Assembly (NCBI GenBank): GCA_003551425.1
Contig: PUMP01000048.1
Span: 2,825 to 66,824 of the forward strand
Length of the DNA: 64,000 bases
Source of the DNA: Candidatus Nealsonbacteria bacterium
GTDB taxonomy: Bacteria; Patescibacteriota; Minisyncoccia; Minisyncoccales; PWPS01
Reading direction: 5' to 3'
The notes below the pieces were generated by a model, which saw nothing but the letters and a program-made list of their open reading frames with translations, did not search any database and was not told where the DNA came from. This document shows positions 46,097 to 55,243 of this stretch, in pieces. Positions within the stretch are counted from its first letter, which is position 1. The number at the start of each line of letters is the position of its first letter. Position numbers and translations under genes: made by a program.

Positions 46097-46169
46097 TGCG
46101 GGATGGTGTAATTGGTAACACGCCACGCTTTGGACGTGGAGTTTCCAGGTTCGAGTCCTGGTCCCGCAG
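46097..46169 (+). tRNA. tRNA-Gln (anticodon UUG)
   Basis: Acceptor TGCGGGA/TCCCGCA, D-stem GTGT/ACAC, anticodon stem CCACG/CGTGG with loop CTTTGGA, T-arm CCAGG-TTCGAGT-CCTGG. Confidence 0.75.
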
Positions 46170-46188
46170 CAAAGGGTAAGAGCGAAAA

Positions 46189-46217
46189 TTCTCGATAGGC
46201 TATCGAGATTTTTTTTA
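46189..46217 (+). terminator. intrinsic terminator after tRNA-Gln
   Basis: CTCGATAggcTATCGAG followed by ATTTTTTTTAT. Confidence 0.6.
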
Positions 46218-46236
46218 TGTGTTATAATGAATAAAT

Positions 46237-47160
46237 ATGAAAAAAATAAAAGACATATTAGACAGTTTTCTAATACAAGCGCAAACTGATAATCTTACAA
46301 CTGGCTCATATCCCAAAGAGTATAATGATTTAAAAATGAAAGTTTCTTTTGGAATGGGGATGCCCGCAAGAGTTCCCTGGGTTGCTTTTATTGTTCCGGA
46401 AATGCAGGTCAGTAAAGGTTTTTATCCTGTTTATTTGTATTATAAGAGCATGAATACTCTTATTCTTGCTTATGGCGTAAGTGAAACATCAGAGTTTGAT
46501 AAAACTTGGCCAGCAGAAATAATGAACTCAACTTCCACCATAGAAGGATTTTTTAATCAAGAAGTTCCCAGATATGGAGATTCTTTTGTTTTTAGAGTTT
46601 ATAAAATTAAAATAGAAAATAGAGAAGTTATTTATTCTTCTGAAGGAAATGAAGATATTTCTAGTCACGATCTCGAATCTGATTTAAATACTATTTTGGA
46701 TTACTACAAGAAAGTTGTTTTAGTTGATGCTAAGGAGAAGAGTTCTGCAATGAGTCAAGGACTATTCTACATGGAGAAACAATTAGAAGATTTTATTATT
46801 CAAAATTGGGAGAATACTGAATTAGGAAAAAAATTTGATTTAATAATTGAAGATGGAGAACTAGTAAGCCAACAGTATAGAACTGATATTGGACAGATAG
46901 ATATATTAGCAAAAGAAAGAGGAAAAGAAGGCTTTGTTGTTATTGAACTAAAGAAAGATCAGACAAGTGATGATACTATAGGACAATTGGCTCGTTATAT
47001 GGGTTGGGTCAAAAGACACAAGAGAGACGAGGGAGTGAAAGGAGTCGTTATTGCTGGACATTATGACAAAAAACTAGACTATGCTCAAGAGATGATGCCA
47101 AATATAGAAGTTTTTCTATATGAGGTAGATTTTAAACTTAAAAAATTTGGGGAAAATTAG
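46237..47160 (+). CDS. MrcB_N (DUF3578)-like N-terminal domain fused to DUF91/NucS-like PD-(D/E)XK nuclease; putative modification-dependent (type IV-like) restriction enzyme
   Basis: The N-terminus (ILDSFL..A.T.NL.TGSYPKEY..L.MKVSFGMG..ARVPWVAFI...SKGFYPVYLYY) matches the McrB N-terminal domain family pattern. The C-terminus (LEDFIIQNWE...IDILAKERGKEGFVVIELKKD...DTIGQLARYMGWV) matches the DUF91/NucS nuclease (D...ELK). Confidence 0.55.
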   Translation: MKKIKDILDSFLIQAQTDNLTTGSYPKEYNDLKMKVSFGMGMPARVPWVAFIVPEMQVSKGFYPVYLYYKSMNTLILAYGVSETSEFDKTWPAEIMNSTSTIEGFFNQEVPRYGDSFVFRVYKIKIENREVIYSSEGNEDISSHDLESDLNTILDYYKKVVLVDAKEKSSAMSQGLFYMEKQLEDFIIQNWENTELGKKFDLIIEDGELVSQQYRTDIGQIDILAKERGKEGFVVIELKKDQTSDDTIGQLARYMGWVKRHKRDEGVKGVVIAGHYDKKLDYAQEMMPNIEVFLYEVDFKLKKFGEN

Positions 47161-47269
47161 CTCTCTTCTAGTCGAAGAACTTGGCTTTTTAAAAATTATT
47201 TATAGCAAATTGCAGCCCTAAGTTTGTCCACTGTGGTCAATATGTTTAAATTCAGAAAACCATAAAGAT

Positions 47270-47806
47270 ATGCCCTATTTTGCAATTTTTATATTGATTA
47301 TTTTTTCTATACCGGCTGTAATCTTGATTTTTACTTTTTTTATATTGATTTCAAATTTTGTTAGAGAAAAAGAGAAAAAAGAAATTTTGCTCCCTTACAG
47401 AAAAAGAAACTCTCTACTATCGTTTCAAGAAAAAAAATTTTATAAAGTAATAGATAAAATAGCAGAAGACAATAATTATTTATTGTTTACAAAGGTGAGA
47501 TTGGAAGATTTATTTTGGATTCCAAAAAACATCTCTTCAAAAGAAAGATTTGGTTTGCGTAATAGAATTAAGTCTCGTCATGTTGATTTTTTGATTTGTA
47601 ATAAGGATAAAATTACTCCAATTTTAGGAATAGAGCTTGACGATTGGAGCCATGCAAGTCGTAAAGCAAAAGAAAAAGACAAATTTATTAATAAAGTTTT
47701 TACTAGCGCAAAACTTCCACTTTTAAGAATTGAAACCCAAAAATTCTACAACCCAGAATTAATTCTTGAAGAAATCAAAAACAAGACGGTAAAAACCAAA
47801 AAATAA
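47270..47806 (+). CDS. DUF2726-domain protein (restriction-endonuclease-like fold) with N-terminal TM
   Basis: EKKFYKVI....NNYLLFTKVRL....HVDFLIC.KD...ILGIELDDWSH....KDKFINKVF..AKLPLLRI matches the DUF2726 pattern. Confidence 0.5.
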   Translation: MPYFAIFILIIFSIPAVILIFTFFILISNFVREKEKKEILLPYRKRNSLLSFQEKKFYKVIDKIAEDNNYLLFTKVRLEDLFWIPKNISSKERFGLRNRIKSRHVDFLICNKDKITPILGIELDDWSHASRKAKEKDKFINKVFTSAKLPLLRIETQKFYNPELILEEIKNKTVKTKK

Positions 47807-47829
47807 AAACAATTAAAAAATAAAAAATT

Positions 47830-48090
47830 ATGGCATTAGTAAATTGTTCTGACTGCGGAAAAGAAATATCAGATAATGCAATAAAATGTGGTAATTGTGG
47901 AAATCAAAATACACCGGGGGAAAAGGGGGAAGAAAAAGAGCTTAAATCGAATATGACGAAACTTGCAGTTCTTTTTTCCATCCCTTTTTCATTAATTCTT
48001 ATTTTTTTGGCCTTACTTACTGGAGATTTTTTAATAATAGTGTTTGCAATTATTTTCGTAATAGGATTAATTATTATTGCAGCAAAATAA
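47830..48090 (+). CDS. zinc-ribbon (CxxC...CxxC) small membrane protein
   Basis: MALVNCSDCGKEISDNAIKCGNCGN followed by a C-terminal TM helix. Confidence 0.5.
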   Translation: MALVNCSDCGKEISDNAIKCGNCGNQNTPGEKGEEKELKSNMTKLAVLFSIPFSLILIFLALLTGDFLIIVFAIIFVIGLIIIAAK

Positions 48091-48220
48091 ACGAAGAAAA
48101 AATTAAAGAAATAAAAAAATAAACGATAATACTCTTTTGGTTGAGGAAATTTTTAAAGTGTTATGGTTCTAGCATCGTTCACTGTAGCCAGCATTCTTGT
48201 GCTAGTGACCGAGACGGGTA

Positions 48221-48255
48221 AGCCCTGAGATTTATTTTCAGGGTTTTTGTTTTAT
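48221..48255 (+). terminator. intrinsic terminator
   Basis: CCCTGAGAtttattTTCAGGG followed by TTTTTGTTTTAT. Confidence 0.6.
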
Positions 48256-48271
48256 GGTAAAATAAAATAAT

Positions 48272-48853
48272 ATGGCAAAAATAATACTGGCGACAACTTC
48301 TCCTTATCGAAAAAAGATATTTGAGACCTTAGGGATTCCTTTTGAAGTAGAGGGGAGCAATGTTGATGAATCGCAACTGGAAAGAAATAATCCGGAAGAA
48401 TTGGTTAAAGAGCTGGCAAAGCTGAAAGCGGAAGCAGTCGCTAGAAACCATAATGATGCCATTGTAATTGGATTTGATTCGGTTGGATACTTTAACGGAA
48501 AATTTCTTGAAAAACCAAAATCAAAAGAAGAGGCGTTTGAGAGACTGCAGTCTCTTTCGGGAGGAAACCATCAGCACTATACTGGAATTTATATAATAAA
48601 CACAAAGTCCGATAAAACGATTTCCGGCGTTGATAAGGCTGATATTTTCATGCGGGATTATTCGGACAAGGAGATAGAAGAATATCTTAAGCAGGGTTCC
48701 GAATTTAACCGCTTTGCGCTCGGGTACGACACAGAAAAGCAGATCAGCGCCTCATTTATTCAAAAGATAGAAGGAAATCATCTTAATTTAAAAGGCATTC
48801 CTTTGTCGGTCTTGGTCGAGATGTTAAGAGAAATCGGATATAAACAACAATAA
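48272..48853 (+). CDS. maf: Maf-family nucleoside triphosphate pyrophosphatase
   Basis: ILATTSPYRK..F..LGIPFEV, VIGFDSV, and the C-terminal GYD pattern of Maf/YhdE. Confidence 0.85.
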   Translation: MAKIILATTSPYRKKIFETLGIPFEVEGSNVDESQLERNNPEELVKELAKLKAEAVARNHNDAIVIGFDSVGYFNGKFLEKPKSKEEAFERLQSLSGGNHQHYTGIYIINTKSDKTISGVDKADIFMRDYSDKEIEEYLKQGSEFNRFALGYDTEKQISASFIQKIEGNHLNLKGIPLSVLVEMLREIGYKQQ

Positions 48854-48887
48854 TATAATTTAGTTGTGAATACTTGTATTGCAAAAA

Positions 48888-48914
48888 AACAGCCGAGGAG
48901 AGCCTCGGTTTTTG
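48888..48914 (+). terminator. intrinsic terminator
   Basis: CCGAGGagagCCTCGG followed by TTTTTG. Confidence 0.55.
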
Positions 48915-48995
48915 CTTAATAAGTAGATTTGGGGTAGAATATAGAAGATAATTAAACATATTTATGGGAGAAATAAAAAATAATAATTTATAAAT

Positions 48996-49454
48996 ATGGA
49001 TGATGAAATTACAATTTTAGAACTTAAAAAAATATTGCAGAAATTTAAAGAAGATAGAAACTGGGGGCAATTTCATGATCCTAAAAATTTAGCTGAAGCC
49101 ATATCAATCGAAGCAGGGGAATTACAAGAAAAATTTCTTTGGAGAACAGTTCCCGGAATTTTGGAAAAGTTGAAAAATGATAAAGAGTATAAAAAAGAGG
49201 TAGAAGATGAGTTCGCAGATATAGTAATATTTTGTTTAAATTTTGCAAATGCTACTGACATAGATATCTCTAAGGTGATAAAAGAAAAAATTAAAAAAAA
49301 CAATAAAAAATATCCCCCGGAAAAGGCAATGGGTGTTTCTGAAAAGTATAATAAACTATTATTGTTTATCAATCTACAAAAAAGGGTTTCAGTGAAGATG
49401 TTATTACTAATAGAATTGAAGAAGCAATTCTTGATATTTTTCAAAAAAAAATAG
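48996..49454 (+). CDS. MazG-like nucleotide pyrophosphohydrolase (all-alpha NTP-PPase)
   Basis: R.WGQFHDPKNLA.AISIEAGEL.E.F.W......E......EVEDEFADIVIF matches the small MazG/YpjD-type core. The metal-binding E..E and E..D residues are present. Confidence 0.6.
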   Translation: MDDEITILELKKILQKFKEDRNWGQFHDPKNLAEAISIEAGELQEKFLWRTVPGILEKLKNDKEYKKEVEDEFADIVIFCLNFANATDIDISKVIKEKIKKNNKKYPPEKAMGVSEKYNKLLLFINLQKRVSVKMLLLIELKKQFLIFFKKK

Positions 49455-49498
49455 GGAGGAGCACCTCTCCTGGTGAAGTTAATGCCTGGAAGAATTCC

Positions 49499-51211
49499 AT
49501 GATGTATATGGAAAACGTACTAAAAGATAATGAAATTCCAGAAGATTGTGGGGTTATGATTGAGTATCAGATACCTCAAACCGCGAAAAGAATAGATTTT
49601 ATATTAACTGGTCAAAATGATAAAAAAATTGATCATGCGGTTATTGTAGAGCTTAAACAATGGGAGTTTGCGGAAATAACAGAGATGGATGGTATTGTTT
49701 CCACTTTTGTAGGCAAAGCTATTCGGCCAGAACCACACCCCTCTTATCAGGCCTGGTCTTATGCTTCACTTTTAAATAATTTTAATGAGGCTGTTTATAG
49801 TGGCAATATTCAACTAAAACCCTGTGCTTATCTTCACAATTATAAAGAGCGAGATGCAATAGTAGATAATTTTTATAGCGAATATATTAAAAAAGCACCC
49901 CTTTTTTTAAGAAATGATTCATTAAAATTACGTTCATTTATTAAGAGATTTGTTAAGTATGGAGATAAGGGAAAAGTTATGTACGAAATTGAGAGTGGGA
50001 GAATAAGACCATCTAAGGGTCTTGCAGATAGTTTAGAAGGTATGTTAAGGGGAAACCAAGAGTTTGTAATGGTTGATGATCAGAAAATAGTTTATGAGAG
50101 GGCGTTACATTTAGCAAAGAAATCGAGTGATAGAAACAAGAAAGTCTTTATTATTGAGGGAGGTCCAGGCACGGGAAAATCTGTGGTAGCGATAAATTTA
50201 TTAGTTGAACTAACAAAACAAAAATTAGTAACACAGTATGTTTCAAAAAATGCAGCGCCCCGAACTGTTTATTGTAATAAGCTTACAGGCAAACACAAAA
50301 AAACGGAAATAGCAAATTTGTTTACGGGATCTGGTAGTTTTGTAAATGCAGAGGAAAATGTTTTTGATACTTTAATAGTAGATGAAGCTCATAGGCTGAA
50401 TGAAAGATCAGGACTATATGCTAATCTCGGAGAAAACCAGATAAAAGAACTGATTAACGCAGCAAAATGTACTGTCTTTTTTATTGACGAGGATCAAAAA
50501 GTGACTTTTAAGGACATCGGAGAAAAAGAAGAGATAATAAAGTGGGCAAAAATGCAAGGCGCCGACATTTACGAAGATAGTTTAGTGTCACAATTTAGGT
50601 GTAATGGATCGGATGGATATTTGGCTTGGCTTGATAATGCCTTACAAATTAGAGAGACTGCAAATAAGACACTTCAAGGTATAAATTTTGATTTTCGTAT
50701 TGTAGACTCCCCAAACAAACTCAGAGATTTGATTTTTGAAAAAAATAAAATAAACAATAAAGCAAGGTTGGTGGCAGGTTATTGCTGGGACTGGATAAGT
50801 AAAAAGGACAAAAACCTGCATGACATAGAATTTCCAGAATATAATTTTAGAATGAAATGGAACTTAGCTACAGAGGGAAGTCTTTGGATTGTATCGCCAA
50901 AATCAATCAATGAAGTTGGTTGTATTCATACTTGTCAAGGATTAGAGCTTGATTATATTGGAGTTATTGTAGGAAAAGATATGATTGTAAGAGATGGAGA
51001 GGTTTTAGTTGATCCAAGAGAGCGGGCTAAGACAGATGCTTCATTAAAAGGTTATAAAAAATTATTAGAAGAAGATGAAAAAGCTACGAAAGAAAAAGTA
51101 AGAAAAATAATCAAAAATACTTATCGAACCTTAATGACACGAGGAATGAAGGGGTGTTATGTCTATTTTGTGGATAAAGAAACAGAAGATTATTTTCGAA
51201 GTAGTGTTTAA
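49499..51211 (+). CDS. DUF2075-type protein: N-terminal PD-(D/E)XK nuclease-like domain + SF1 helicase/ATPase (Schlafen-like)
   Basis: The N-terminus (RIDFILTGQ...AVIVELKQW) is D...ELK. Walker A GGPGTGKS; DEAH-like IVDEAHRL; C-terminal GCIHTCQGLELDYIGVIVG resembles UvrD_C_2/motif VI. It starts 45 bp downstream of the MazG-like gene. Confidence 0.65.
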   Translation: MMYMENVLKDNEIPEDCGVMIEYQIPQTAKRIDFILTGQNDKKIDHAVIVELKQWEFAEITEMDGIVSTFVGKAIRPEPHPSYQAWSYASLLNNFNEAVYSGNIQLKPCAYLHNYKERDAIVDNFYSEYIKKAPLFLRNDSLKLRSFIKRFVKYGDKGKVMYEIESGRIRPSKGLADSLEGMLRGNQEFVMVDDQKIVYERALHLAKKSSDRNKKVFIIEGGPGTGKSVVAINLLVELTKQKLVTQYVSKNAAPRTVYCNKLTGKHKKTEIANLFTGSGSFVNAEENVFDTLIVDEAHRLNERSGLYANLGENQIKELINAAKCTVFFIDEDQKVTFKDIGEKEEIIKWAKMQGADIYEDSLVSQFRCNGSDGYLAWLDNALQIRETANKTLQGINFDFRIVDSPNKLRDLIFEKNKINNKARLVAGYCWDWISKKDKNLHDIEFPEYNFRMKWNLATEGSLWIVSPKSINEVGCIHTCQGLELDYIGVIVGKDMIVRDGEVLVDPRERAKTDASLKGYKKLLEEDEKATKEKVRKIIKNTYRTLMTRGMKGCYVYFVDKETEDYFRSSV

Positions 51212-52068: not shown

Positions 52069-53319
52069 CTAAATTCTCTCCAGTATCTCCTTAATAGTTT
52101 TCATTTTTTTGTTCTCCAGGTCTTCCTCTTTTATATTTTGAGAAACAAAAAGAGCGGTAAGAGGCTTTGTTTCTTTTCTCTTGTATTTACCGGGATAAGT
52201 ACTCTCCAAGTCTTTTTCCAAAATAAAGATCTCTCTTTTCTTTAGTTCTTCTATTTTATTATTCATACCGGTTTTCTTTCCGAAGGAGGGAAACTTTTTA
52301 ATCTTTTGAAGAGAGCTTGAGTTTAAAGCGTCACGATCGAGCATTACCGCGTAAGGAATTTGAAAGGTTTCACAAAGACTGGCGTAAATATCTACAGATC
52401 CCTTTCCACTCGTATATACAACCTTTATGTTCTTATTTTTTCTATAGAAACGGTTGATCATTTCTCGCATAAAGATGCGGTCGGAAACTCCCTCTACAAG
52501 AAGCACTTTGTCTGAGAAAAGCATTCCGGAGTTATCGTCATTGATCTCTTGTATAAAGCGCGTTATATCCACCTTTTTCTTGGAGAAACCGCAGAGAGAA
52601 GTGCTTCCTTCTTCATTTCTGAAAATACGCCATGTCTTGGGGAGGTATTTTGCTTGCACGAAAGTAGGATGATGAGTGGTAAGAAAGATTTGTTTTTTTA
52701 ATTTTTTTTCGTTTAAAATACTAAGAAACTTTTTTATCACGGAAGGATGAAGATCGATGGAAGGTTCGTCTATAAGAATTACCTTATACTGAGGGTGGAA
52801 GATATAAAAAAGGATTACGAAAAGACGCTTGAATCCGGAACCTATTCTTTTTGCCGATCTTTCTTTCTTGTCGGCATATACATTGGAGAGAAAAAGCTTT
52901 TCGCTTATCTCTACGTCCCTGAAGTTTCTTCTCAAAGAAGAGGAAAACTCTTTATAGTCCTGAGGATAATCTTTTTTAAAGCTCTTTATTTTCTTTGCTA
53001 CTTGATAATAATCTTGAGAGCTGTCGATTCTGATAAAATACTTTCTAAAATCTTGATCGGAAGAGGAATATTGACCGTGCCGATAGGAAAGGTTGTGATC
53101 TTTGCCTTTGTGGGTTAAAATGAGTTCAAGATCGGCGTCTTTGTCAGAAAATCTTTCCGGATCGGTATTATCATCGAAAAAAAGATGAATAGCGTCAAGG
53201 ATGTTCGTTTTTCCGGCATTATTGGACCCTACAAGAATTTGAAAGTCAGAGATTTCCCTAATGTGCATGGCATCTTTAATGCTTTTGTAGTGATTTATGG
53301 TTATTTCTTTTATTTTCAT
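52069..53319 (-). CDS. OLD-family (overcoming lysogenization defect) ATPase-Toprim nuclease / fused PARIS(AriAB)-like
   Basis: The N-terminus is IKEITINHYKSI...ILVGSNNAGKTNILDAI (ABC-type Walker A). Walker B is ILIDEPSIDLHP. The C-terminal Toprim has LLVEGVSD and ...MLDRD. Confidence 0.65.
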   Translation of the reverse strand: MKIKEITINHYKSIKDAMHIREISDFQILVGSNNAGKTNILDAIHLFFDDNTDPERFSDKDADLELILTHKGKDHNLSYRHGQYSSSDQDFRKYFIRIDSSQDYYQVAKKIKSFKKDYPQDYKEFSSSLRRNFRDVEISEKLFLSNVYADKKERSAKRIGSGFKRLFVILFYIFHPQYKVILIDEPSIDLHPSVIKKFLSILNEKKLKKQIFLTTHHPTFVQAKYLPKTWRIFRNEEGSTSLCGFSKKKVDITRFIQEINDDNSGMLFSDKVLLVEGVSDRIFMREMINRFYRKNKNIKVVYTSGKGSVDIYASLCETFQIPYAVMLDRDALNSSSLQKIKKFPSFGKKTGMNNKIEELKKREIFILEKDLESTYPGKYKRKETKPLTALFVSQNIKEEDLENKKMKTIKEILERI

Positions 53320-53333
53320 AGAATATTTTAATT

Positions 53334-54119
53334 ATGAATTATTTAAACTTTGCGGTAGAAACCGCGGAAAGAGCAGGGAAAGTGTTATATGATTCTTTTC
53401 GCATAAAAAGCGCAAAGAAAAGAGGAACAAGCAAAGAAGTAAAAAGTACTTTTGACAGGGTGGCGGATGATATTATTATAAGTTCCATAGAAAACAGTTT
53501 TCCCACTTACTCTTATTTTACCGAAGAAACAGGATTTGTAAAAAAAGATGACTCCCTGGTATGGGTTGTTGACCCTCTTGACGGAACCGGTAACTTTGAG
53601 AGTCATAATCCTTTCTTTTCGGTAGCGATATCTTTATGGAAAGAAGGGGAGCCGGTCGTAAGCGTTATTGAAGCTCCCGCACTGCAGGAAAGATTTTTAG
53701 CTGTAAGGAACGAAGGTGCTTTTCTTATTGATTGCAAAAGTAAAAGAAAAAAGCAAGTCAATGTTTCTTTGGTAGAGAAAAGTCAAGACGCTTACGTTGT
53801 TTTTTGTGAAGGAGGTGAAAAAGATAAGAAGCGTATTGTAGAATTTCTTTCTCGTATTTATACGAGCTCTAAAGATCTTAGAAAAATAGGATCTGCATCT
53901 CTTGAGCTCGCTTTCTTGGGAGCGGGGAGAGTAGACGGTTATATTACGTTTCAAATACCGTTCTATGATTTGGCGGCAGGACTTCTTTTTTTACAAGAGG
54001 CGGGAGGGTTGTTTTACAATTTTCAAGGAGAAAAGCTTTCTTTTAAAGACTTTCAAATAAACAAAAGTTTTGACTTTATAGCGGACAATGGAAAGATTGG
54101 GCTTGAAAGACTTGCATAA
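53334..54119 (+). CDS. inositol monophosphatase family protein (SuhB-like)
   Basis: WVVDPLDGTGNF and the IMPase fold motifs. Confidence 0.8.
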   Translation: MNYLNFAVETAERAGKVLYDSFRIKSAKKRGTSKEVKSTFDRVADDIIISSIENSFPTYSYFTEETGFVKKDDSLVWVVDPLDGTGNFESHNPFFSVAISLWKEGEPVVSVIEAPALQERFLAVRNEGAFLIDCKSKRKKQVNVSLVEKSQDAYVVFCEGGEKDKKRIVEFLSRIYTSSKDLRKIGSASLELAFLGAGRVDGYITFQIPFYDLAAGLLFLQEAGGLFYNFQGEKLSFKDFQINKSFDFIADNGKIGLERLA

Positions 54120-54177: not shown

Positions 54178-54411
54178 ATGGATAACAAGAAAATTCTTAT
54201 TGCGGTTGTATTGGTGTTAGCCGTAGTAGTTCTTGTAGGAGTTGTTTCTTTGGGCCCTGAGGAACCCATTGATCCTGAATTAGAGCTTGACCCCGAATTA
54301 GAGCTTGACCCTGAATTAGAGCTTGACGACCCTGAAGACGTAGAAGAAGAGGAAGAGGAAGAAGAGGAAGAAGAGGAAGAAGAGGAAGAAGAGGAAGAGG
54401 AAGAGCTATAA
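54178..54411 (+). CDS. membrane-anchored acidic repeat protein (PELELD x3 + poly-Glu tail)
   Basis: N-terminal TM (ILIAVVLVLAVVVLVGVV), then 18-bp repeat-encoded hexapeptides, then 30 consecutive Glu. Confidence 0.5.
   Translation: MDNKKILIAVVLVLAVVVLVGVVSLGPEEPIDPELELDPELELDPELELDDPEDVEEEEEEEEEEEEEEEEEEEEEL
54274..54405 (+). repeat. 18-bp tandem repeat x3 (CCTGAATTAGAGCTTGAC) followed by GAA/GAG microsatellite
   Basis: Copies at 54274, 54292 and 54310. The (GAR)n tract runs 54340-54405. Confidence 0.8.
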
Positions 54412-54440
54412 AGGACTAAAATATTAGCTTTATTTTAAGA

Positions 54441-54682: not shown

Positions 54683-55243
54683 TTGCTTTTTATGTTTAAA
54701 CTAAGAGAAGGAGAAAAAGTTTTACTTATAAGGCAAAGGCACCCTATAATTTTAAAGCTGAAGATCTTTCCTTTCGTTCTTGTTTTTGTTGCCGTGATAT
54801 TGATCGCTCTTGTATTGCCGTTTATTTCCCTTGATGAGCCGGAATGGATGAGTTTAATCTTTGAATATACCGGATCTTTCAATATTCTTTTTTATCTTCT
54901 TTTTACTTCCTTTTTAACACTTTTTCTTTTCTGGCAATGCATCTTTGTTGTTGTGGTAAGTTATTTTTTTGATTGCTGGATAATTACCAACCAACGAACG
55001 ATTCATACGGAATTGCGCGGCCTTTTCAGCCGTTATGTTTCCAGCATATATCATGACCGTATTCAAGATGTAAGCGTTGATGTAAAAGGGATATTGCCAA
55101 CTTATTTAAATTATGGTAATTTGCAGGTGCAAACAGCGGGTAAGTTTCGTGAATTTGTTTTTTACGATATTCCCGATCCTTATAAAGTCAAAACAATATT
55201 AATAGATATTCAACGAAAAGGTCGAATTAAAAATATAAGTTAA
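54683..55243 (+). CDS. bacterial PH-domain (bPH_2/DUF304, YdbS/YdbT-like) membrane protein
   Basis: A TM hairpin is followed by ITNQRTI....G.FSRYVSSI..D.IQDVSV...G.L...LNYGNL.VQTAG. A 66-aa TM ORF at 54499..54699 overlaps its start. Confidence 0.55.
   Translation: MLFMFKLREGEKVLLIRQRHPIILKLKIFPFVLVFVAVILIALVLPFISLDEPEWMSLIFEYTGSFNILFYLLFTSFLTLFLFWQCIFVVVVSYFFDCWIITNQRTIHTELRGLFSRYVSSIYHDRIQDVSVDVKGILPTYLNYGNLQVQTAGKFREFVFYDIPDPYKVKTILIDIQRKGRIKNIS

Follow-up and report, generated by a model that had tools for sequence, protein, structure and literature searches.

Positions 46237–47160 (forward strand) of a 64,000 nucleotide stretch of DNA from a Candidatus Nealsonbacteria bacterium (contig PUMP01000048.1; the whole stretch is referred to below as the window) carry a complete coding sequence, with an ATG start and 307 amino acids (aa) plus a stop codon in the list of open reading frames (ORFs), in which an McrB-N reader is followed by a NucS-like nuclease. 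Judging from sequence comparisons and structure models, the product is most likely a stand-alone type IV restriction endonuclease that is independent of nucleoside triphosphates (NTPs), and we consider it likely that it is an endonuclease dependent on modified cytosine and acting in defence; the exact modification read and the geometry of the cut are less certain. The original prediction, made from the nucleotide sequence, had proposed a compact type IV enzyme on a single chain, with neither a GTPase nor an McrC partner, and every in silico check agreed with this. These checks included a survey of gene neighbourhoods at 57 independent loci (the window itself, 3 metagenomic contigs and 53 loci obtained by scanning one genome per species); none of the 112 nearest neighbours, when scanned with Pfam, proved to be an McrC, AAA_5 or DNA methyltransferase protein.

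Domain organization and active site

The protein divides into three parts, all encoded on the forward strand. The first 160 aa (46237–46716) make up a predicted base-flipping reader for modified cytosine of the McrB-N type (also DUF3578, MrcB_N or 'ADAM'), assigned with Pfam, NCBIfam, the PDB, Foldseek and an AlphaFold2 model; aa 161–178 (46717–46770) form a flexible linker, whose predicted local distance difference test (pLDDT) score falls below 50 at aa 163–178 and whose sequence and length vary among aligned homologues; and aa 179–304 (46771–47148) form a NucS-like, or minimal RecB-type, PD-(D/E)XK nuclease according to Pfam, PADLOC, profile and Foldseek searches and the AlphaFold2 model. 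The mean pLDDT of the model was 83.9, with both domains mostly above 86, while the predicted template modelling (pTM) score was just 0.54, which together with the low-confidence linker is what two rigid modules joined by a flexible tether would give. The peptides on which the original prediction had relied were all located in the protein (ARVPWVAFI at aa 44–52, SKGFYPVYLYY at aa 59–69, IDILAKE at aa 221–227 and GFVVIELKKD at aa 232–241). The two domain assignments drawn from them stood with changed boundaries: the N-domain is of McrB type by Pfam, PDB sequence and fold, over the approximately 160 aa of the McrB-N fold rather than the 130 aa proposed, and the C-terminal half is of DUF91/NucS type, its core being adjusted to approximately aa 179–304. 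In public data, an identical protein (P0001) and more than 1,700 homologues were found, the top non-identical match having an E of 5.5e-165. All of the 120 best homologues had the same two Pfam domains and were 295–321 aa long, nearly all of them 303–313 aa, and in the window the ORF is the longest of its 32% GC stretch.

The assignment of the N-terminal half was supported by several searches. Pfam MrcB_N (PF12102) matched aa 26–160 with 37.2 bits (gathering threshold 25), and the NCBIfam McrB equivalog aligned aa 1–190 to model positions 1–181 of 459 (E 2e-20; 72.9 bits against a cut-off of 637); since this alignment is confined to positions 1–181, it covers the reader only and none of the GTPase. 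The crystallized EcoKMcrB-N (PDB 3SSC and related entries) was found with the single sequence at E 4e-19, and a profile of 61 family sequences matched 3SSC at E 8.5e-27 over aa 1–130. When the AlphaFold2 model, in which the reader has a pLDDT of mostly 86–95, was compared with DNA-bound McrB-N (3SSD/6GCE) by Foldseek, we obtained an E of ~6e-11, a target-normalized template modelling score of 0.82–0.84 and a root-mean-square deviation of 2.7–2.8 Å. Profile, PDB-sequence and fold searches thus all led to McrB-N, with the 5-methylcytosine (5mC) pocket conserved, and none of them to an unrelated fold. Taken together, sequence and predicted structure identify the N-terminal half as a true homologue of EcoKMcrB-N.

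The C-terminal half matched Pfam NucS_C (PF01939, formerly DUF91) at aa 199–276 with 47.7 bits (threshold 24), so that MrcB_N and NucS_C each passed their gathering thresholds in the Pfam scan, well above chance level; YhcG_C (YhcG/DUF1016), which overlaps the stronger NucS_C match, remained below its own (30.4 bits against 32.5). The family profile matched P. abyssi NucS (2VLD) at E 7.9e-5, aligning aa 217–276 with chain residues 154–211, and also found T. kodakarensis EndoMS (5GKE), and Foldseek matched both structures at E ~5e-5. Searching the PDB with the single sequence of the C-terminal half alone gave only chance coiled-coil matches to SNAP-25 and NucS at E 0.25; for this half, the informative searches were those by profile and by fold. 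The catalytic motif lies at 46900–46998 on the forward strand, as placed by alignment with the codons checked: D222 (46900–46902), E237-L-K239 (46945–46953), Q250 (46984–46986) and, after three residues, Y254 (46996–46998). We take D222, E237 and K239 to correspond to D160, E174 and K176 of P. abyssi NucS, an assignment based on the offset of the profile alignment. By sequence and model, the C-terminal half is a NucS-type PD-(D/E)XK nuclease with an intact catalytic motif.

A non-catalytic or regulatory methyl-DNA binder, or a decayed remnant, would fit the fact that the NucS match is limited to a core of ~60–80 residues and that nuclease activity is a prediction. However, D222 (in IDILA), E237 and K239 (in VIELK) and Q250 and Y254 (in GQxxRY) were invariant in 61 homologues from archaea and bacteria, the length is fixed at ~307 aa, and the nuclease domain was predicted at a pLDDT of 88–98, with the topology alpha-beta-beta-beta-alpha-beta. 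Invariant catalytic residues and fixed length indicate purifying selection on the active site, and we regard loss of catalysis as barely plausible. The same D..ExK..QxxxY motif was also invariant in relatives of the nuclease that bear other N-domains.

The nuclease half also matched models of PDC-S02, a single-gene, computational candidate defence family in PADLOC (PDLC04824, E 5e-46, aa 148–303 on positions 152–307 of 308; PDLC04799, E 8e-38), and its identity to the nucleases of other members is 45–65%. In contrast, no model aligned aa 1–147: the N-terminal half of the models corresponds to a different domain, of the type seen in P0195, and none of them represents the whole McrB-N variant.

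The reader pocket and the predicted mode of action

An alignment of residues 1–170 of E. coli K-12 McrB with 23 family members placed the pocket and clamp residues of the reader at 46345–46575 (forward strand): S37 (46345–46347), M40 (46354–46356), W48 (46378–46380), Y63 (46423–46425), L67 (46435–46437) and Y113 (46573–46575). S37, W48, Y63 and Y113 were invariant, EcoK included (S38, W49, Y64 and Y117), and L67 (L68 in EcoK) was conserved in at least 90% of the sequences. In EcoK McrB, Ser38 and Trp49 form a phosphate clamp; Trp49, Leu68 and Tyr117 build one wall of the pocket and Tyr64 the opposite one; Tyr64 and Leu68 contact the 5-methyl group, and Tyr117 stacks on the flipped base (Sukackaite et al., PMC3424535). 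According to PDB titles, complexes of EcoK McrB-N have been solved with 5mC, 5-hydroxymethylcytosine (5hmC), 5-formylcytosine (5fC) and N4-methylcytosine (N4mC), while the pocket is too small for glucosylated hydroxymethylcytosine (glc-hmC; PMC3874153). The reader of the window protein is homologous to that of EcoKMcrBC, with 35% identity over the McrB 1–170 alignment and ~30% over the Foldseek superposition, and since the pocket residues are shared, the same substrate class is predicted, namely non-glucosylated modified cytosine in duplex DNA.

In the remaining parts, the two systems differ. The window protein has no AAA+ GTPase (no AAA_5 or AAA match at E ≤ 0.1), no McrC (DUF2357 plus PD-(D/E)XK) is encoded in its neighbourhood in the window or among the 112 nearest neighbours, and its nuclease, which is on the same chain, belongs to the NucS/RecB-like branch and not to that of McrC; in the reader itself, the wedge is Met instead of Tyr41. 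With neither a GTPase ring nor McrC, the enzyme is predicted not to translocate and not to need two distant sites.

In the mechanism that we propose, the reader would turn a cytosine out of the DNA duplex so that it enters a pocket made of W48, Y63, L67 and Y113, with M40 filling the gap, and van der Waals contacts of Y63 and L67 would favour 5mC, as in EcoKMcrB; the pocket should also take 5hmC, 5fC and N4mC, and glucosylated hmC would be excluded. The flexible linker would tether the NucS-like PD-(D/E)XK domain (D222, E237 and K239), which would hydrolyse the backbone near the bound site, and a homodimer or higher oligomer probably cleaves, two nuclease domains giving a double-strand break. 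Host DNA would escape because the modification is absent from it, and therefore no protective methyltransferase would be needed. We infer the modification read, the oligomeric state, the position of the cut and the defence phenotype from these comparisons. A more specific version, which we put forward tentatively and hold to be doubtful, is that at a fully methylated site each of two McrB-N domains would take up one flipped 5mC, as in the 3SSC crystal, and that the NucS-type domains would cut both strands beside the site to leave a defined short overhang. If this were true, the enzyme would work independently of GTP and by a mechanism unlike that of McrBC, with its translocation between distant sites, and that of MspJI, a tetramer that cuts at a fixed distance. 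The spread of the family, at 50–81% identity, among genomes of SAR11, Prochlorococcus, the Candidate Phyla Radiation (CPR) and the DPANN archaea would in that case point to modified-cytosine phages as a major, under-appreciated pressure on streamlined microbes.

Several observations weigh against a defence nuclease directed at modified cytosine. The position of the EcoK wedge Y41 is occupied by M40, which is near-invariant in the family. In EcoK, Tyr41 intercalates, and the position is variable among homologues and may tune the preference for flanking sequence; Y41A and Y41Q both weakened binding (PMC3424535), so that with a Met wedge the affinity or the flanking-sequence preference may differ. 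The conservation of the family (50–81% identity, archaea compared with bacteria) is unusually high for a defence gene. The finding that no DNA methyltransferase motif falls in a real ORF covers the 64 kb of the window alone. Furthermore, the one tested representative of PDC-S02, a family with several types of N-domain, gave no protection against T4, T5 and T7 in E. coli B (bioRxiv 10.1101/2024.09.26.614923). Such an outcome would be anticipated if the reader recognizes modified cytosine without glucose, as none of the three phages is expected to carry a modification that the reader would accept, yet it remains a negative result. The four alternative explanations weighed in this report are, taken together, rather unlikely, if by no means negligible.

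The identity of the wedge bears on one of these alternatives, in which the enzyme would be modification-dependent with a shifted reader, its target being other cytosine adducts, N4mC only, hypermodified bases, modified RNA or single-stranded DNA. Besides the change from Y41 to M40, the finger loop is unlike that of EcoK (GMGMPARVP in the window protein, GYGNFTSIP in EcoK), and the EcoK residues whose backbone (82–85) hydrogen-bonds the Watson–Crick edge are reported to be unconserved among homologues (PMC3424535). A change of specificity is also known for such sensors: ENDMag reads modified G (PMC12191111), and RNA is the predicted target of the CoCoNuT McrB systems (PMC11090510). Against this, the methyl-discriminating residues (Y64 and L68 in EcoK) and the stacking and wall residues (W49 and Y117) are invariant or nearly so, and the predicted fold superposes on DNA-bound McrB-N within the deviation given above. 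We therefore consider a shifted target unlikely.

Interchangeable modules and related single-chain enzymes

To place the fusion among known proteins, we searched 1.84 billion cluster representatives exhaustively with HMMER, which gave 2,974 matches at E ≤ 1e-3. Full-length matches amounted to a handful of clusters at 50% identity, and the remainder matched the reader half or the nuclease half alone. Relatives of the reader half at 40–60% identity included McrB-type AAA_5 proteins (P0131, P0148, P0151, P0160, P0170 and P0204). Relatives of the nuclease half (45–65% identity) were the C-termini of proteins of 250–500 aa, whose N-terminal parts had no Pfam match and were of at least four types by sequence; these relatives with other N-terminal parts all matched PDC-S02. 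On these matches, reader and nuclease are independent evolutionary modules that recombine separately in nature. Keeping one effector while exchanging the sensor is a hallmark of modification-dependent restriction enzymes.

Two further proteins with the reader, in the same range of identity, were observed in this search. P0133 (374 aa) combines MrcB_N with an Mrr_cat nuclease and has no GTPase, making it a second predicted single-chain type IV design, and P0163 (489 aa) combines MrcB_N with a Sigma70_r4/GerE helix-turn-helix (HTH), also without GTPase, and is possibly a methyl-DNA-sensing regulator.

The design has precedents in which modification-dependent phage defence is proven. ENDMag joins a NucS-like nuclease to an inactivated EndoIII/Ogg (iEndoIII) sensor and defends against phages with modified G (PMC12191111), and Madara, which is PDC-S11, has an EVE-like sensor at its C-terminus, targets T4 with glc-hmC and requires its catalytic Asp (bioRxiv 10.64898/2026.09.05.749240). 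As in these two, a NucS-like PD-(D/E)XK nuclease is predicted to share a single chain with a modified-base sensor in the window protein, which matched PDC-S11 models weakly (E 7e-8); Madara differs in its reversed domain order, and the sensors of both are unlike McrB-N. MspJI, PvuRts1I/AbaSI, TagI and VcaM4I likewise couple a base-flipping reader of modified cytosine to an NTP-independent nuclease and have no cognate methyltransferase (PMC3874153, PMC6765204). Their readers, in contrast, are of SRA or EVE type (PUA superfamily) and their nucleases belong to other PD-(D/E)XK lineages or to HNH, and we detected no sequence relationship between them and the window protein. Two features of the single-chain type IV class were found, with a predicted reader and an intact-motif nuclease on one polypeptide and no protective methyltransferase adjacent to the gene (57 loci and the 64 kb window).

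Full-text literature searches returned no paper that describes or tests a fusion of McrB-N with a NucS-like nuclease, and the public annotation of homologues reads 'DUF1016 family' or 'PDDEXK nuclease domain-containing'. The fusion is a new combination of known parts, which extends a well-known design principle and overturns nothing. If our interpretation is true, it would become the first characterized enzyme whose McrB-N reader operates with neither a GTPase motor nor McrC, and a 35 kDa, cofactor-free endonuclease directed by methylcytosine could join MspJI and AbaSI in epigenomic mapping. It would also offer a clean case of module shuffling, with the reader found alongside GTPase, Mrr or HTH domains and the nuclease alongside at least four other sensors.

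Distribution and genomic context

When 185,579 species, each represented by a single genome, were scanned with peptide patterns, which give a lower bound, at least 129 confirmed relatives were identified, and the family extends across archaea and bacteria. Full-length members that share 50–70% identity with the window protein are found in archaea (Woesearchaeota, Aenigmatarchaeota, Micrarchaeota, Bathyarchaeota, Nitrososphaerales and Thermoplasmata), in CPR bacteria (Saccharibacteria, Parcubacteria, Peribacteria, Levyibacteriota, Dojkabacteria, Falkowbacteria and Paceibacterota), in marine lineages (Pelagibacteraceae, SAR86, SAR324, Marinimicrobia, Prochlorococcus and Flavobacteriaceae), and in Chloroflexota and Syntrophorhabdus. 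In 50,697 phage records the family had no match; IMG/VR gave a single match, a relative of the C-terminal half, and plasmids gave relatives of this half only. The gene resides in cellular genomes and not in phages. If our interpretation is true, its presence in SAR11, SAR86, Prochlorococcus, Marinimicrobia, CPR and DPANN suggests that phages or mobile DNA carrying modified cytosines exert selection there. These lineages, Pelagibacteraceae and Prochlorococcus among them, are usually described as poor in defence systems; many single-cell genomes of the latter two groups have full-length homologues (L027–L030, L032, L035, L046, L051, L057, L058 and L063).

To describe the neighbourhoods of the 57 loci, all ORFs within 6 kb were clustered de novo. 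The only recurrent neighbours outside housekeeping were a MazG-like gene (10 of 57 loci) and a DUF2075 helicase (9 of 57); others that recurred were glmS/glmU, dnaG/rpoD, ftsZ and rmuC, and in SAR11 the nuclease gene directly follows dnaG-rpoD. Integrases were present at 4 loci, and among the 112 nearest neighbours the only methyltransferase matches were two small-molecule enzymes of UbiE type. The conservation across domains together with lineage-specific flanks indicates, as judged from the sequences, wide horizontal transfer under strong constraint. At two loci the homologue adjoins another predicted restriction-type nuclease, a DUF8426-Mrr_cat protein at L003 (5912–6880) and an HNH protein at L004 (8336–9211). 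A resolvase, an integrase and a D5-type primase lie near the latter, so the nuclease gene there rides on a mobile element.

These data also bear on the possibility that the protein is a DNA-repair endonuclease, in which a base-flipping domain would inspect cytosine-derived lesions or T:G pairs arising from 5mC deamination and the nuclease would nick or cut, as in Vsr or NucS/EndoMS. The nuclease half is homologous to the mismatch nuclease NucS/EndoMS (archaeal and actinobacterial; 2VLD, 5GKE), with which it shares the C-terminal minimal RecB-like nuclease with D..ExK..QxxxY and a broadly similar succession of base-flipping N-domain and cutting C-domain (PMC8228993), and the high conservation, the presence in streamlined genomes (SAR11, Prochlorococcus and CPR) and the many loci flanked by housekeeping genes only would suit a repair function. 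However, the half-closed beta-barrel N-domain of NucS, which serves in dimerization and mismatch recognition, is replaced by McrB-N, with no match to the Pfam NucS N-domain, and the NCBIfam NucS equivalogs, at 47.6 and 37.1 bits, stayed below their respective cut-offs of 216 and 252. The clamp-binding motif (PCNA-interacting protein (PIP) box/beta-clamp motif, [E/K]-[L/Y]-[T/R]-L-F; PMC8228993) was absent by inspection from the C-terminus, which ends ...VDFKLKKFGEN in the window protein and ...VDFKLxEFK in the family consensus. On sequence grounds, the window protein is not a NucS orthologue. Its family is also patchy and island-like, in contrast to a lineage-wide repair gene, with the few relatives counted above, flanking genes that vary by lineage and integrases near some loci, and its nuclease module takes swappable sensor domains, a common trait of defence proteins. 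Whereas Vsr works in tandem with Dcm, no Dcm-type methyltransferase adjoins the genes studied here. A role in repair is thus improbable, and defence remains the favoured function.

We also considered whether the nuclease belongs to a multi-gene system with the MazG-like protein, which resembles dCTP pyrophosphatases, and the DUF2075/Nhi-like helicase, for example one in which the pyrophosphatase would clear the nucleotide pool of modified dCTP and the nuclease would cut modified DNA. The two genes lie within ~2.5 kb of the nuclease gene at 9–10 of the 57 loci, in archaea and bacteria; at three CPR loci (L036, L039 and L065) all three are co-directional with ~30 nt gaps; the module is found at none of 24 loci whose nuclease has another N-domain (Fisher p 0.03–0.05); and the MazG-like protein matches structures of dCTP pyrophosphatase 1 (RS21-C6) at E 2e-13. 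In contrast, the module is missing from 47 of the 57 loci of the nuclease gene, three other genes stand between nuclease gene and module in the window, and a reverse survey, starting from 80 metagenomic loci that encode close helicase relatives (L092–L171), found a MazG-like gene adjacent at 67 and the McrB-N/NucS gene at none. We therefore rejected a functional dependency among the three genes, and consider such a system highly improbable. Their proximity is best accounted for by islands that house them together or by shared integration hot spots.

The reverse survey, with 67 of 80 adjacencies and no nuclease gene, indicates that MazG-like gene and helicase form a two-gene module of their own. 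In the window the MazG-like pyrophosphatase (PF12643) adjoins the DUF2075/Schlafen-group-3 (Nhi-like) helicase at 48996–51211 (forward strand). The helicase has a D..ExK-like motif at its N-terminus and weak PADLOC matches to PDC-S41, Nhi and AbiO, and no paper in the literature library searched names both DUF2075 and MazG. From these sequence features, the pair may be an undescribed candidate defence pair.

The window is bacterial by its gene content (dnaX, dnaB and, read from ORF translations, recR and L21) and has 37% GC. In it, the nuclease gene follows a tRNA-Gln gene (46097–46170, forward strand, found with ARAGORN) and a terminator-like hairpin with T-run (46190–46208, from a terminator scan). 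Upstream, tRNA gene and hairpin mark the border of a low-GC stretch that the nuclease gene opens, with a GC content of 0.32 for 46237–51211 and 0.37 in the flanks. Reading the sequence directly, we noted a perfect extended -10-like element, TGTTATAAT, at 46220–46228 (forward strand), 8 nt before the ATG; the promoter consensus scan did not score it, there being no -35 match, and no Shine–Dalgarno sequence was seen at the gene. A promoter of its own and a leaderless or near-leaderless mRNA are thus possible. The genes downstream encode, in order, a DUF2726 membrane protein, a Zn-ribbon membrane protein, Maf, the MazG-like protein, the DUF2075 helicase, a superoxide-dismutase-like ORF (identified by reading its translation only) and an OLD-family nuclease. 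With several defence-type genes, the region from 46237 to ~52000 resembles a tRNA-adjacent island. A search for mobile-element borders at 46–56 kb revealed no repeat of the tRNA-Gln 3' end downstream, no convincing long direct repeats and no attachment (att) site, and no integrase was found in the 64 kb window.

Several neighbours deserve separate mention. At 47270–48090 (forward strand), the DUF2726 protein (NERD/PD-(D/E)XK-related), which has a hydrophobic, membrane-like N-terminal segment, is followed by the Zn-ribbon protein of 86 aa with a hydrophobic C-terminal tail; as the next terminator-like site (48220–48246) comes only after these two genes, they and the nuclease gene may share a transcript. 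All three genes are found together again on a Logan contig (L001, run SRR490150), and in the other surveyed loci no DUF2726 gene was next to the nuclease homologues. The Maf-family nucleotide pyrophosphatase (48272–48853, forward strand; E 6e-47) lies just 5' of the MazG-like gene, so that two nucleotide-pool 'house-cleaning' enzymes adjoin in the low-GC stretch. The OLD-family nuclease (52069–53319, reverse strand) consists of an AAA_15/AAA_21 ATPase and an OLD-like TOPRIM domain; it matched PADLOC Old at E 2e-32 and also GajA models, and matched the NCBIfam model of the retron Eco8 effector below its cut-off. Finally, between an ORF ending at 54116 and another starting at 54683, three tandem 18 nt repeats (TTGACCCTGAATTAGAGC...) followed by a GAA/GAG-rich run with a 9 nt period were observed at 54269–54416, which would encode poly-Glu if translated.

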